In this document: positions 216 through 42,745 of the stretch, in pieces
Numbering within the stretch: position 1 is the stretch's first letter
Layout of the letters: each line of letters starts with the position of its first letter
Assembly (NCBI GenBank): GCA_963924565.1
Contig: OZ004611.1
Location: 20,646,001 to 20,710,000, forward strand
DNA: 64,000 bases
Direction of reading: 5' to 3'
Source: Ascidiella aspersa
Lineage: Eukaryota
Program-made: the position numbers and the translations under genes
The notes under the pieces: generated by a model
What the model saw: the letters and a program-made list of their open reading frames with translations, nothing else
Told to the model about the DNA's origin: nothing
The model's database searches: none

Positions 216-20863
<20,648 letters not shown>

Positions 20864-30883: not shown

Positions 30884-33800
30884 ATGGCACGTTTATGTAT
30901 GTGCTGTCAAGTAACGTGTATTCTGTAGCCCAGTGGTCTCCAAGCTTTTATTAACCGACCACGAATTACATATAAAATGGAATCAGCATTTACATGCGAC
31001 CCCAGTTTGTTTTTTTAAGTAACTTTTTAGCTTATTACACGAGCTAAATAAGGCATATAGGCTACAATTTCGGAGAATTGTGGCTACATATATGTAATGA
31101 AATGAGGAGTTCAAATTAACACATGGATTTAATTTTAACACATGTAATTGCGCTAGTTTAAATCCCGAGCGCAATGAAACCACTAAACTGCTCGAATTGG
31201 TAAGTGATGACGACCCCAGAATAGGTTTAGGCGACCCCACATGGGGTCGCGACCCAAAGGCTGAAGATCACTGCTGCAGCCAGTAGCAATACTTTTGCAC
31301 CTTGCCTTCTTGTGGATGCACAAGGGATTTCCCATACTGAAAGGTCATGATTTAGTAATTACTTAAATAACGATGTTAAAGCTGATTGATTCTTCGATAG
31401 CTGACTGCTGCCAGGTTTTGGCGGTTTTGTCAACTTTCGAGATGAGGTTCGAAATTCGTTGACAACCGTGCAACGGATGTACTTAAGCACCCAGTGAAAC
31501 AAATAAATTTGCTGACGTTATATGTTAAGAGATTTGTATAATTTATTAACAACGAATTGCAGCAAAAATGCATATTTCAGATTGTTAAAAATTTGTGATT
31601 TCGAAATGCAACTTTCGTACTGCATTTCGAACGTAAAAAGTGTGTTTGGTAATGTATGTACATTACCGTTTCGCATAAGTAATAAGGTCATGGTGTTGAT
31701 ATCACTGAATGGGCAATTTGCTACAGTCAGAAAATAATAAAAAGATGAAATTATAAATCACCATTTGTATGCACTCCTTGAAAGTATACTGGAATATTGT
31801 TTGCAGTGGAAGTACCTTACAAAGTTTGGTTTTATTGTTAAGTGTGTTACGTATCACAAGCGAGGCGTAGTTGAGTATTAAGATTTACTGATTTCCACGA
31901 CAGATTTTGCAACTTAGAATTTTATTTTTTATTTTCACCAAGCACCCTACATAGCTTACTCCAATGAAACCCCTGGTAGTTATACTCGACCGAAGCGTCA
32001 CGCATCCGGGTGAAAAGTACGTGCACACTTACAGCGGTCTTGGGGTAAGTTTGTAGCTAGAATGCATAGCACTTTTAAAGATCCTATGTATGTGCACCCT
32101 GTATATCAATACTGCTACCACTTTAGAAATTGGCACGACGCTACACGATCTGGAATGTAGAATAGACACTTAAATAAAGCTATCGAGTATTCCTGTGCAG
32201 TAAGTCATAGAAATGTAACAACATCGACTGTCGACTGTATCGCAAAAAAGCCGTTTGACAAAACACCCATAAGGTTGGCCGTAGTTGTAGTTTCGTAAAT
32301 AGTATTTAATCGAATTCGTTGTAATATTTCAATCGAATTCGTTGGTAAGTCGCTGTAATGTGCGACGACTGCTATCACTTTATTTACTTCATATTTTTGG
32401 GTACACTATGCACGGATCTGTAATGTAGCTTAATAATAAATTTCAAAGCCAAAAAGGTCGAGTAGATCGACAGCATCTTGATTAAGACGTTTCGATACGA
32501 ACTAACCGAAAGTTGAAGAAGATGATACAAGCTCGTATCGAAACGTCTTAATCAAGATGCTGTCGATCTACTCGACCTTTTTGGCTTTTAAATTTATTAT
32601 TAAGCTACATTACAGATCCGATTAATTAAATGGTGACGGATAAGGATGTCCGATACTTGACATCTTTATACGAAACCGTTACCCGATATTTTAGGCAAAA
32701 AGTAATGTGATTCGATAAAGGAATAAATCGCTCCGTTGTATCGCAAATCATAGCTAAAACATTCATATTTATTTGGTATCGGATCGGCACCCATATCACC
32801 CTAGTATCGGACGGGTAGCGATACTTTCATTTGGATCGGATATCGACTCGATCCGATATTATCGGACATCCCTAGTGATGGATTAAGATGCTAACACTGT
32901 ACGAATACTGTGCACCATGGCATTTGTTTTGTTACCACTTAGGCGATACAGCTTCTTATTGGAATAATGATGGTGATTTTGGCCGTCGCCACAATGGTAA
33001 TTGCAGGGACCTATTTCGACTACGCCTACGGCCTGACGAATATTGCGCCGGGAATATGGTGCGGTGCTTTGGTGAGTTCAGGTCGATGTTTAGGATGTAA
33101 AAAGGCGTAATGATTTTTTTTGTCATTGGCTTGTTTGCACAGATTTGCAAATTACAGGGTGGTTTCCAACAACTTCCGATCGCATACCACCAAAAGCAAT
33201 GGTTCTTAACCTGGGGCGCCCCCTAGCCGCGCCAACCCGTTCTGAGCGGGGTGCGAATTTACTACAATATTTAAATTTTTGCATAGTTAATATAATGGTT
33301 TAATGCGACGCTTGTTGTTAATTTTTTCTTTAGGGCTGTTTTATGCTTAATCTCTTAAAAAAGTATATGGTTCATGATGTTGCGATTTGCATGTTTTTAA
33401 ACTTTATTTTGAACAGTTTCTTGCTGTTTGAGCCCTTTTTATATTTTTCTACTCTTTACATCCTATTTATAATGCTTTGTAAAAACTATCTGTTACAGTT
33501 GACGGAGATCTATGTTGTGCACAGGCAGGATTGCGCACAAGGCTATTACCTCTTCCACAAACTGTATTTTTTGCCAATTTGAACAATCAGGTTTACTGCG
33601 AAATTAATTCGAGCCTCGCTAAATCTTGCAATTAATGTTTTTTACCTGTATTACGGACAGTTTCAGCTATCATCTCTGTACATTTACCATTGCGCGTTTT
33701 CTGTATTTTAAGATACACGTTTTATCGCACATTTCGTATGCTACATGCAGCGAAATCGGGTTTTCAAGTTACAATTTTTTGCAAACTACATAAACGTTTT

Positions 33801-38184: not shown

Positions 38185-39702
38185 CAAGTCAACATATTCC
38201 GCAGACCATCCACCAATGAGCCCTCATTGCTGCTGATTGCTGATATCTTTTTAAAAATGTTACCAGTTTCTCCAATCAAATGCAATTTGACACAGCATGA
38301 CAAAAAACTGAGTAAATCTAAAAAAATACTATGGCACAATATCAAGCTATTGCATGCATTGATAATAATGTGACACATACTTTTTATTTTTAGTTTACCT
38401 CGTAAAATATGACCTCAAACGCCTTGAATAGAAAGTTCTAATTGGGAACTTATGTACAGTTGTGTCTTCAATATAATTACCTGTTGCTGTGAGGTTGACA
38501 TTTGCACAGCTATCATTTAACCTCAAATAATCGATTAAATGCAAGGGGTTGGGCAGAATGAAGTCAATTACATCACGTATTGACATGCAATTGTTGTCGT
38601 TTGCCTTGTGCAATTCATTCAGACTTGGACGACTATCATATCTTAAGTTTTCCACGTAAAATTAGAATTAAAATATGAGCTTTTGATTTTTTAACAACTT
38701 TAACTAGAATTATTGAAGTTGCCAAAACTAAAAAGTGACTTAAAATCGGAAGTTCCATTTGGCTTTGCATTTTTTGTTGAAGCACCTGTTTCTCCTGGTC
38801 GCATCGCATAATTGTACCTTTTTTAAGTTTATTGACATTTTTGTCGTAATAAACAAACAAACCAATTTGCACGTTTTCATAGTGGTGTGACCTAATGTGT
38901 AATACGGGTTCATAGCTGAAAGATGATTATTCGTCTGGTTTTAGAAAACAATAAAGAACGTGACTCCTTGCCTAGCGGAAACAATGTGGGAAATCGAAGC
39001 GTAAAATTAGGCGCACAAATTCTGGTGACCAATGCAATGGATTTTCTCTTTGTCGAACTTAGGCGAGTAATTCGATACAGGCGGAAAAACCCGTCGTTGG
39101 CCCTTGCTTCATCCTACAGCAAATGGATGACGAAAAATAATTCCAGTTAAATCCAGAGTGCATACGGCAATTTGTTGATCGGCCAAACAAGAAATGCCCT
39201 CAGAGCGACTATAATGAACTTTTTGTAGCTGATCTACTCGCGATATTTTCTGTGGGAACTGTTTTTGTTTAAATCGGCAATGGAGTAGGGCATTGTTAAC
39301 CTTTTTATCAAGGTGATTTAAATTATTATCGAGTAATATATAATTGTATTTAAAGTTGTAAAGGGCCACAGTAACATAGTTTGTCTGGGCGATGAACGAA
39401 CAAACGTATACTTTACATCAAAACAGAACTTAAGTCGCGTTTGTAGATTTGAGGTTTTATGTTGGCTCGCTTTCAAGCTCGCACCCCCAATCTACTGACA
39501 CAGTCGAAAAAAGAGGAGCATATTTAAAACAACTGTGTTCTACTCGAGTCGTTATCTATCCTAGACTGTAGCCCTAAACTGAACGTCAAAGACTGCAGCC
39601 CTGAAGTGAACGTTTGGTGCTAAATAATAGTCCATATAGAGAAACTCAGAATGATAACAATCCCATCATTTATAAGTGATGCTTGAATTACTTCTCAGTC
39701 AC

Positions 39703-39744
39703 ATTAACTGAAGATGTTACAAGCTCGTATCGAAACGTCTTAAT
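39703..39744 (+). ncRNA. Minimal type-I hammerhead ribozyme motif (family B)
   Basis: ATTAA-CTGAAGA-T-GTTAC-aagctc-GTATC-GAA-A-cg-T-C-TTAAT: 5-bp stem I, intact core, stem II with one mismatch, palindromic ACGT at helix III, GUC cleavage triplet. Confidence 0.75.
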
Positions 39745-40423
39745 CAAGATGATGTCCATCTAATCGGCCTCTTTGGCTTTGCCATTCACTTTGTCATGCT
39801 ACATTGCAGATCCGAACATAGTGTACTCAACTGTGTTCTTTTTTACAAAATAATGTAAAACACGAAGCGCAGTGGAAAACACGTAAATTTTATACAGTTT
39901 AGAAACGAGCAAAAATACGCATTTTGTTTCTTTTTGTGTATATAGTTTTTTTCCTTGGGTATTTCATCGATTTTAAACATTCACAAGTGCTTGTAAACGC
40001 CAAAAGTGCCGTACATTTGAATTTAAGTGGAAAAATCGCATTTAAAATTGCTTCAGGTTGCAAATTGCCCCGATTGCCTTGCCATTCTCCCTTCTTACCA
40101 GCATCCCCTCATCCAGTAGTCGTAAAATGCCCAGGCCTGATCAGTCTTCCCTACTGAGTCCACGACTGGTTTCCCGTCCCAATTGCTAATTTTGGCGCCT
40201 ATTTTGGAACGGGTCGTCATCCGTGATCAACTTCCCGCGCGTTACCGACTGCAAATCGCGTGACGTCAGCATCATCGTGACGTCAGCGTGATGTCGACGA
40301 CCGACTATTGCTAAACAGTGAGCTGGATTTAATGCAGTTTTTTTCTCGTTGATCACATCGATTTATGCCGGGCAGGACTTAGCTTTAGGTAAGTAGTAAA
40401 ATTAACCTCCCAAGTAGTAAAAC

Positions 40424-40727: not shown

Positions 40728-41655
40728 AGTTAAACCGATCTGCTGTAAAACAGCCATGTGGAACCATCTCTTATTCACAGGTCTGATTTAGGCTGAGGAG
40801 GCAAGTGCATAACAGTAATACTTGTTTCCGGTGACTTGCCCTCGGCCATAAAACAACCTCGAGTGCACTTCCGAGGGGCATGTAGCAGACCTGCCCCTCC
40901 CCCCTATATGCCGTTCCTCGTGACTTTGAATCATAGGGGAGGTCGTTGGTCGCCTTACAGTTGCGCCCGGCGTTAAATAGGCCCGAGTGCCCCGCAGATT
41001 GCCTTGATTTGCTAAGGTCGCCACGACAGGTGCTGGCAGCCCGCCGTTTGTTTTTGTGCACTTTCGCAATCGGATTACGTCGCTATTTCGCGTTTGCGAG
41101 ACGCCGCGCGAAACCATCGATCGGGAGCCTTTATTGGCCGCCTTTACTTATTTATGAAGTGCCGAGCGACGGGGTTCGCTTGTTTGTTTGCCGTTGTTGC
41201 TTTTTAGCTGCAATTTTTTTCTAGTTCTCGTTCGATGTTTGCAGGGCGTCGACTGGTTCATTAATGAGCCTGTTGCGCCTTCAACGAGCCTTGTTGATTT
41301 GTTGTTCAGATGTGAGCCGCAAAAGAAATTGTCGTTTTAGGGAAACTGAAAAGTCGATTGCTTTAAAGTAAGATGCACTATTTTATTATGGGTCGAAAAT
41401 TTATTTTCGGGACTTTGCCGTTAAATGTTTCAGACCGATTTTTGTCCGAAGCTTTACAGAAAAAGTATACATCGTAGAATTCTCAAATTTTTATAGACGT
41501 AGAGTGGTAAGTAGGTGTGAATAAGACGTTTGTGAATCTGCACCCCCGGGGGCCTTCGATTGGGGGATAAAAAACCTAAAAGATTGTGTCGTCATCGTTT
41601 TAGCTCTATGTAGCTATCGACTCCCATCTAGTTTATAACTTGCTTTCATTTGTAC

Positions 41656-41695
41656 TTTAACCTGATGAATCACGATAGTGCGAAAGCTTGTCGAG
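41656..41695 (+). ncRNA. Degenerate minimal hammerhead ribozyme motif (family C)
   Basis: tttaac-CTGATGA-A-tCAC-gata-GTGc-GAA-A-gc-T-T-gtcgag. Core intact with palindromic AGCT, but the first stem II pair is T.C and stem I is weak. Confidence 0.5.
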
Positions 41696-41860
41696 ATTTT
41701 AGTGCAATTTGTCGTTAAACAATAGGGCGTATCTTTATAGAATCGAAAACCATCGGCGGCAGGTTTTAGCCAGTCGATCACTGCTCCGCTCACGCGTATA
41801 TTAACAAGTAAACTCATAGTTAAAAACATGAGTAAAAACAGGATCAGACGTTTTGTTTAA

Positions 41861-41899
41861 AGGAAAATATATTTCGCCAAAGTGGCATCATCAGTCCCT
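41861..41899 (-). ncRNA. Minimal type-I hammerhead ribozyme motif (family A, minus copy)
   Basis: AGGGA-CTGATGA-T-GCCA-ctt-TGGC-GAA-A-tata-T-T-TTCCT. Confidence 0.8.
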
Positions 41900-42042
41900 G
41901 TAAGGGTACAAATAAATAAAATCAAAGCGCAGCCATCAACAAACCAATAAAAGTAAACAATAAAAATGTTTTAATATTTTATTTTTTACTTTTATTGGTT
42001 CGTTGATGGCTGTGCTCTGATTTTATTTATTTGTACTCTTAC

Positions 42043-42081
42043 AGGAACTGATGATGCCACTTTGGCGAAATATATTTTCCT
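42043..42081 (+). ncRNA. Minimal type-I hammerhead ribozyme motif (family A, plus copy)
   Basis: AGGAA-CTGATGA-T-GCCA-ctt-TGGC-GAA-A-tata-T-T-TTCCT: perfect stems I and II, one A-U pair plus a palindromic tetraloop for helix III; predicted cleavage after 42076. Confidence 0.82.
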
Positions 42082-42745
42082 TTAAACAAAACGTCTGATC
42101 CTGTTTTTACTCATGTTTTTAACTATGAGTTTTACTTGTCGTTAAACAGTAACGCCTGATTACCATATTTAGAATTAGAAAGCGATTATTAACAAAGATA
42201 TTTTACAATTTATTTCGCGCTGACATAATGCCGTTAGACTTCTTTGGAAAGGCAAATCGACAGCAGCGTCTTTTCAGGAATTAGATTAAATATCCAACCG
42301 GAATGTGAAAGGGTTAAAATTTGAACCAAAAAGTTTAGCTAATATTGCGTTAAATTCTTACTACAGGCTGGCCTTAGCTGACTTAATGGCGAACTGACAA
42401 ACTTAGTTTTATTTGTTTTCGAGTCAATTATTGTGGATTTCGTTTTTTACCGTTAGCTTAAAAGAAGCATTGTTGGTTTTCAAATTAATTTTGCTTTCCA
42501 AAAGCAACGTCCGAAAAGCACAAGTTAGAAATTTAGGTGCTGCAAGAAACATAAAAGAATAAATTGCTTGAATTTAAAGTAATAAACTTCACAATAAAAG
42601 ATCAAATAAAACCAATATGTCTCACAGTAATTAATAATTTACAGAAAACTGTTTTGTCATACATGTCGCGGCGTCGAACAGACCACTGGATAACGCCAGT
42701 TATATTTGACACTAGGTGGCAACATAGAGTTTTATTAGGTTAGAA

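Follow-up and report, generated by a model that had tools for sequence, protein, structure and literature searches.

A minimal hammerhead motif in a truncated Penelope-like element of Ascidiella aspersa

The insertion and its hammerhead motif

We analysed a stretch of 64,000 nucleotides of Ascidiella aspersa (assembly GCA_963924565.1, contig OZ004611.1, positions 20,646,001 to 20,710,000 of the forward strand), hereafter the window. It contains a 5'-truncated, decayed copy of a Poseidon-type Penelope-like element (PLE) family, referred to as family B, and this copy carries a hammerhead motif. The features, in window positions, are as follows:

39530..39541, + strand: left target-site duplication, 12 bp (this 12-mer occurs in the window only at 39530 and 39828)
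39542..39827, + strand: 5'-truncated PLE of family B, 286 bp, delimited by copy alignments and the flanking target-site duplication
39543..39587, + strand: last codons of a GIY-YIG endonuclease ORF (LESLSILDCSPKLNV, matching LESLSIQDCSPELNV), then a small local duplication and deletion
39588..39702, + strand: stretch upstream of the ribozyme, made of the rearranged ORF end and pseudo-LTR and common to family copies
39703..39744, + strand: minimal type I hammerhead motif, from sequence and cross-family covariation
39703..39707 and 39740..39744, + strand: stem I, ATTAA and TTAAT
39708..39714, + strand: CTGAAGA box (CUGAAGA in RNA)
39715, + strand: extra unpaired T (U)
39716..39720 and 39727..39731, + strand: stem II, GTTAC and GTATC, with one U-U mismatch; loop II (AAGCTC) lies between the strands
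39732..39734, + strand: GAA
39735..39738, + strand: helix III palindrome ACGT (ACGU)
39739, + strand: C17, with the predicted cut after it
39714..39743, + strand: translated 9-codon dead-end upstream ORF, its AUG made of core A9, the extra U and G10.1
39749..39827, + strand: the tail, consisting of the opening ~26 codons of the element's ORF; intact sister ORFs have homologous N-termini
39828..39839, + strand: right target-site duplication, repeating the 12-mer
32397..32503, - strand: inverted family-B fragment with the tail and the 3' half of the hammerhead only (83% over 109 nt; inverted repeat I3)
32518..32621, + strand: family-B fragment with paired stem II, CTGA box missing (85% over 106 nt)

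The endonuclease remnant corresponds to the end of a 202-aa frame in family copy L012. Over 304 columns the insertion is 78% identical to L069/L119, and over 222 columns it is 85% identical to L017/L107. The upstream ORF is out of frame with the main ORF, whose AUG lies 9 nt behind the cut; the tail has decayed in this copy, its fifth codon being a stop. Two runs gave DNA contigs that span the insertion junctions and no empty-site joint is listed among them, so the insertion is not private to this assembly.

The motif displays the core boxes, the extra base after A9, the G10.1-C11.1 pair and the palindromic helix III of minimal PLE hammerheads, and it is a real member of this published class (PMC4209133). 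A preliminary description of the window had placed a hammerhead core here, with a GUC site, a palindromic ACGU helix III and a cut after 39739. Every one of these elements is seen in the sequence, and the cut coordinate is the correct predicted site. Its term 'intact' overstates this copy: all boxes are present, but stem II forms 4 of its 5 pairs, with T39717 facing T39730. Folded alone, stem II has an energy of 0.0 kcal/mol in the window copy versus -3.1 kcal/mol in a typical copy. A generic hammerhead scanner that required two contiguous stem II pairs passed over the motif, and this brought the U-U mismatch to light. Stem I of the window copy consists of A-U pairs throughout. An extended stem I (CAG-CA with TG-CTG) is indistinguishable from a competing UCAGU/ACUGA hairpin.

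The marks of a canonical type I hammerhead (a stable helix III, contacts between loops 1 and 2, a score at the Rfam gathering level) were not found. Helix III is just a 4-nt palindrome, with the ACGU self-duplex predicted at -3.1 kcal/mol, and Rfam at its gathering score did not report the motif. The self-cutting motif is likely inactive in the window copy. The sole Rfam match in the window is of tRNA type (11206-11280, 49.2 bits); it is followed by repeats of ~150 bp at 11780-12240 and may be a tRNA or a tRNA-derived SINE.

Two further pieces of family B form a hairpin at 32.4-32.6 kb, where the plus-strand fragment and its inverted partner make up a head-to-head PLE insertion. The homology of these arms to the motif region, as previously proposed, holds (plus arm 85% along 106 nt, minus arm 83% along 109 nt, E about 1e-27), as does the paired stem II of the plus arm. 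The hammerhead there is incomplete: the plus arm begins only at 32518 and so lacks both the CTGA box and the 5' strand of stem I, and the minus arm ends inside stem II.

Conservation, covariation and folding

Conservation within family B was assessed on 55 copies that fully cover the motif; they were not chosen by the core pattern and overlapping loci were removed by flank, but the set was chosen by similarity, leans to good copies and may retain a few duplicates. The core is intact in 38 of these copies, which answers the question of whether copies keep it, and 28 of the 38 also have five stem II pairs. The 5-bp stem I announced earlier, ATTAA/TTAAT, is present in the window copy, but it is all A-U and only 22 of the 55 copies pair it fully; ACTAA (12 copies) or ATCAA (7 copies) stands opposite TTAAT, and these mismatches are fixed in two subfamilies. 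Conservation is 95.7% for the core, scarcely above the 93.2% of the tail, with 95.3% for stem II, 91.2% for stem I and 89.0% for loop II. No compensatory change was found among the 55 family-B copies.

Comparison across families provided the covariation. In a gap-free alignment of ten motif types, 8 of 9 pairs vary on both sides and 85.6% of cells pair. The covariation score is 0.652, versus at most 0.158 for slid controls; 0/500 shuffles reached this score and 9/500 reached the pair count, a tally that should not be read as a probability. A smaller set of eight rows, four of them from family B, displayed covariation at 9 of 11 pairs. Two rows of the ten-type alignment have U3-A8 in place of C3-G8. 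The ten types are related and were picked with the core pattern, which builds in the invariance of the core; what the covariation supports, at the level of sequence, is the stems and not that invariance.

The motif is also abundant. Exact matches to the core with paired stem II and ACGTC number 590 in the genome against 0 for the reversed pattern, a family-B count far beyond chance, and a looser pattern found another 1057 cores of ACGU type, where its control gave 18. The idea that an AT-rich repeat matches the hammerhead consensus by chance, which would be in keeping with the lack of an Rfam match and with a fold that is not the most stable one, is exceedingly improbable: it is refuted by covariation across families at a position anchored to the ORF, and the motif agrees with the published PLE motif.

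Thermodynamic folding was less favourable. In all four family-B copies folded, the best fold is lower in energy than the hammerhead by 11 to 12 kcal/mol, stem I has a probability below 0.001, and a UCAGU/ACUGA hairpin is predicted to cover the first box. Of the three copies other than the window's, two have a second predicted hairpin, CGUCUU/AAGAUG, which takes in both the cut and the start codon; for the window copy a different misfold is predicted. Fold z-scores were not significant. Meanwhile, stem I is favoured in families D, F and H (0.74-0.90) and not in E and G, with a value of 0.007 in family E.

These results bear on the possibility that the family-B ribozyme is a vestige, inherited from active sisters and no longer cutting, and that the family spread without it. 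The stem I mismatches fixed in two subfamilies and the competing hairpins predicted in all B copies folded, set against the well-folding D, F and H, are consistent with such a loss; so are the in vitro insertion by ribozyme-dead mutants (PMC11167929) and the success of Naiad PLEs, which thrive without hammerheads (PMC8557442). We nevertheless regard this as unlikely. Compensatory changes in both stem I and stem II separate B from its sisters while every core base is kept, a pattern that requires the fold to have been under selection in the B lineage, and family E, which has intact tandem ORFs, folds poorly too.

Family B, its protein and its neighbours

The genome search returned 2232 first-look candidates, and among the 40 scored, the listed best matches were 85-89% identical. 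The 3' ends are sharp, with 78 of 80 copies ending within 19 nt of the tail anchor and 26 at one site. The 5' ends vary, and inverted 5' pseudo-LTR pieces, which have been described for PLEs (PMC8557442), are common. Duplications of 7 to 15 bp surround many of the first 30 loci, some of the shorter ones probably by chance. Neither a full-length or intact family-B copy nor a direct tandem pair was found in the genome search; tandem pseudo-LTRs are present in sister families D and E.

An RT/GIY-YIG frame, which the preliminary description had suggested looking for, lies upstream of the hammerhead on the same strand in family copies. In L061-L069 the motif follows the end of the RT-endonuclease ORF. 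The 202-aa frame of L012 has a GIY-YIG-type VVY...SYIG segment and ends just upstream of the motif. Family-B frames match RVT_1 (E 2.4e-10 and 1.2e-7), the sequence KPDKGNG, with the DKG motif that precedes the RT core, occurs in L066, L068 and L081, and pieces from family B jointly cover residues 241-848 of a sister ORF, intact at 848 aa, with ~50% identity. Pfam found nothing in two short L012 frames, and its GIY-YIG model did not match the B piece and matched only the E-family protein, below the cut-off (E 7e-4), so the B endonuclease rests on its motif and on homology. Similarly, no family-B piece was found for ORF residues ~40-240, so it is homology that connects the tail with the RT.

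Taken together, the tiled pieces and the sister ORF place RT together with a GIY-YIG at the C-terminus in one ORF, and the 5' truncation, inverted 5' copies and tail make up a pseudo-LTR structure; both, like the DKG motif, are marks of EN+ PLEs. By inspection, the L012 frame has no CX2-5CxxC linker between RT and endonuclease, and C-S-C, KEH and CRH residues are present. Absence of the linker and a CCHH motif in the endonuclease are criteria for Penelope/Poseidon elements (PMC8557442) and point to this type for family B, an assignment made by motif criteria and not by a tree, with the 120 listed homologs lacking clade names.

The ~90 bp of shared sequence noted earlier downstream of the motif are the start of the element's ORF. 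Typical copies have a frame that opens at the AUG 9 nt behind the cut and is homologous to sister ORFs at their N-termini. The continuation predicted for rarer, longer B copies, K-Y-x-x-x-H-Y-G, had three exact matches, all of them family B, against 0 in the control; with up to two mismatches there were 40 matches, some from sister families, again against 0.

Most family-B copies are short and non-coding. Locus L022 (G000 C4:30177201-30177812) displayed a family-B tail and a short inverted piece in about three repeats with ~170-bp spacing, a retrozyme-like arrangement, and also a family-A-like motif at 2881. A retrozyme or SINE that is non-autonomous and multiplies through a small circular RNA could have these properties, and a preprint derives animal retrozymes from PLE pseudo-LTRs (10.64898/2026.07.22.740005). 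For the window copy, the remnants of the ORF refute this very improbable reading: it starts within the endonuclease ORF, and its end is again ORF sequence. Likewise, 5' ends vary in the family, and longer copies extend into RT. A non-LTR retrozyme, made of non-coding tandem units that each hold a hammerhead, is ruled out by the single unit, the ORF remnants and the target-site duplication, and the motif is of the minimal type.

The preliminary description had called this a second retroelement family, unrelated to and independent of family A at 41.8-42.1 kb. The two are distinct, and, as claimed, nothing is similar outside the core: blastn of the family-B motif region against family A gave no match at E<=1. 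The terms 'unrelated' and 'independent' are not supported, since both are PLEs: their RTs are 24% identical over 128 aa (E 3e-8) and their endonucleases 41% over 34 aa. In the window, family A forms an inverted pair at 41810-42132 with 156-nt arms (96%), and ORF pieces occur in L147 and L148. At two loci, RT and GIY-YIG frames joined by a CGHCCLCGH linker lie between inverted family-A ends that are 2.5 kb from each other; by this CX2-5CxxC linker, the sequence makes family A a Neptune/Nematis-type PLE. It shares with family B the PLE RT, the GIY-YIG domain, a minimal hammerhead, a palindromic helix III and inverted pseudo-LTR pairs, and differs from it in the linker, the ATATAT helix III, the 98% identity of its young copies and the divergent RT. 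Canonical hammerheads have been reported as general in pseudo-LTRs of PLE clades with a C-terminal endonuclease (PMC8557442), so shared descent is the simpler reading. By sequence, families A and B are distant, divergent clades of one class.

Several hammerhead families side by side are ordinary in this genome, as the 1057 further cores and a third family at 41661 illustrate. This third family (window 41654-41722) has CTGATGA at 41661 and a palindromic AGCT helix III, and its relatives L154, L161 and L164 have a GAC/GTC stem I; a 13-mer at 41709 recurs at 42136, and this family, C, and family A may share an insertion site or an end sequence. Elsewhere, family E (L072-L075; G000 C3, C4, C9) displayed intact frames of 816-843 aa in tandem arrays with 2.67-kb spacing, and its hammerhead has U3-A8 for C3-G8 and only a 2-bp stem I. 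Family D (L070 and L071; G000 C3, C7) has intact frames of 848 and 880 aa, tandem pseudo-LTRs and a well-folding minimal hammerhead. The window also holds identical 248-nt direct repeats at 14467-14714 and 19025-19272, 4558 nt apart, a layout of a recent LTR retrotransposon.

RNA reads came from one run of the same species label (X5), of which ~6% was read. Copy L012 drew 1129 reads, nearly all on the pseudo-LTR and tail and on both strands, and 94% of them continue into unlike sequence. In this 6% no place on L012 gathered many ends and depth showed no dip at the cut, weak evidence because a standard RNA library can lose cleaved ends. The window copy had 50 reads, placed only on the shared core, with 26 of 30 bins at zero depth and unread flanks; at 39717, 34 of 36 reads carry the family base. 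The empty bins and the family base indicate that these reads come from other copies, a result from 6% of one run that does not demonstrate silence.

The probable start codon behind the predicted cut and the relation to known elements

In nearly all copies, core A9, the extra U and G10.1 spell an AUG, and among the studied loci 111 of 117 distinct motif copies have an ATG no more than 14 nt behind the cut, with the conserved start AUG at 4-13 nt. The core AUG is fused to the downstream one in 12/15 copies of D/H and 15/18 of E, where one more copy is in frame without the core ATG, versus 0/60 in B, 0/7 in F/I, 0/11 in G and 0/6 among copies outside the groups. It is thus a dead end in three of five family groups (B, F/I and G), these groups being set by a crude pattern and their copies not being independent.

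Homologous proteins tell a similar story. Among the best 120 of 170 database homologs passing, 93 align at a conserved Y-G and 27 do not. In 77 of the 93 the Y-G falls at residue 25-36, matching the downstream start (33 in B), with eight longer and eight shorter; the starts of these homologs are gene-caller predictions. The Y-G position and the downstream ATG together suggest that the conserved N-terminus begins behind the cut, and by sequence the element's protein likely starts just behind the predicted cut. Read by hand in the ORF frame, the six common tail variants (at least 11 copies each) are three synonymous, three missense and no nonsense. Most homologous PLE proteins of ~830 aa (P0003-P0122) begin with a strongly hydrophobic stretch of ~15 residues, followed by a basic patch and R/H-Y-G.

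Could the cut serve translation? In the same element, cleavage would strip the core AUG; the resulting 5' end, 4-13 nt ahead of the real start, would permit translation of the RT-endonuclease to begin without a cap. The downstream ATG in nearly all copies, the unfused core AUG in B, F/I and G, the Y-G position in most aligned homologs and the absence of nonsense among common tail variants are consistent with this. There is also precedent, since viral type I hammerheads drive cap-independent translation and one cuts 7 nt before the start codon (PMC13725137). We hold this reading doubtful: the position marks where the ORF starts and not that cleavage matters, and leaky scanning past the first AUG would suffice. 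Both families with intact 840-aa ORFs, D and E, have the core AUG in frame, the annotation of the anole ORF begins at stem II, 26 nt before the cut, no RNA-seq reads begin or end at that cut (PMC11167929), and ends do not pile up in the 6% of run X5. The counts further depend on non-independent copies, crude grouping and gene-caller starts.

A stronger form of this idea, which we consider quite improbable, is that the hammerhead of Poseidon-type PLEs acts as a translation switch. Protein-assisted cleavage of dimers would remove a decoy AUG, so that only tandem transcripts make the transposition protein, and an RNA with a 5'-OH, starting 4-13 nt before the true start codon, would be handed to the ribosome. 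Our literature search found no translation role stated for PLE hammerheads, although supplements and Lunse et al. (RNA Biol, on dimers) may already note one; the available part of the preprint 10.64898/2026.07.22.740005 contains neither 'start codon' nor 'translation'.

Based on the observed anatomy of the element (ORF end, pseudo-LTR, tail and target-site duplication), the size of the family, its link to RT and endonuclease and the covariation with sister families, we postulate that the motif is very probably the minimal hammerhead of a PLE terminal repeat in a 5'-truncated copy, whose parent would likely cut its tandem transcript and which is itself likely inactive. In the parent, the tandem transcript would be cut after GUC as a dimer with help from protein. 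Two motifs would pair their ACGU palindromes into helix III and cleave weakly, as minimal hammerheads show no cleavage as monomers and low cleavage as dimers (PMC4209133). By analogy with the anole element (PMC11167929), the ribozyme may need the element's protein; in family B two local hairpins are predicted to mask both core boxes, which fits the need for a chaperone. Reverse transcription would start inside the first ~90 nt of the downstream ORF, leaving copies that end in a tail of coding sequence. The tail end within the 5' part of the ORF fits such internal initiation.

In this light the find is an ordinary one: a motif class that was published in 2014 gains another family, here in the form of a decayed copy. 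What PLE hammerheads do has yet to be settled (PMC8557442, PMC11167929). This genome provides a natural series of related families that keep the AUG behind the cut and have a core AUG either fused to the ORF or blocked, and with it the question of processing, translation control or passenger becomes testable by a simple reporter. The layout of the start codons hints at a putative role in translation, and it suggests that annotations which place the ORF start within the ribozyme may set it too early.

Viral type I hammerheads and the R2 HDV-like ribozymes cited with them (PMC13725137) cut a few bases before a start codon, as predicted for family B. The viral motifs cleave efficiently and are reporter-tested, whereas family B has a weak, dimer-type motif known from sequence.

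Poseidon of Anolis carolinensis (PAc; Frangieh et al. 2024, PMC11167929) shares with family B a C-terminal GIY-YIG after the RT, a hammerhead that overlaps the junction of pseudo-LTR and ORF with an AUG at the start of stem II, insertions that end in a tail of 5' ORF sequence, and no RNA ends at the cut. The PAc ORF is annotated from the stem II AUG, which places the cut 26 nt inside it, whereas in family B this AUG leads into a dead end of 9 codons, and it is 9 nt behind the cut that the ORF frame begins. The family-B tail covers ~80 nt of the ORF, compared with initiation at 111-118 in PAc.

The closest likeness is to the minimal hammerheads that metazoan PLEs carry in their pseudo-LTRs (Cervera and de la Pena 2014, PMC4209133), which have the same type I topology and CUGANGA/GAAA boxes, the extra base after A9, G10.1-C11.1, the palindromic 15.2-16.2 and a short helix I. 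All four non-descriptor traits of that work are found here, namely covarying consensus families, the extra base, G10.1-C11.1 and the palindrome. As there, this genome has many consensus families, a U3-A8 variant (here in a sister family), and mostly solo truncated copies with inverted pairs. Stem II has 5 bp in family B versus 7-8 bp in schistosome families, and in the window copy it has a mismatch. The relation of the cut to the start codon seen here is not discussed in the available text of that paper.
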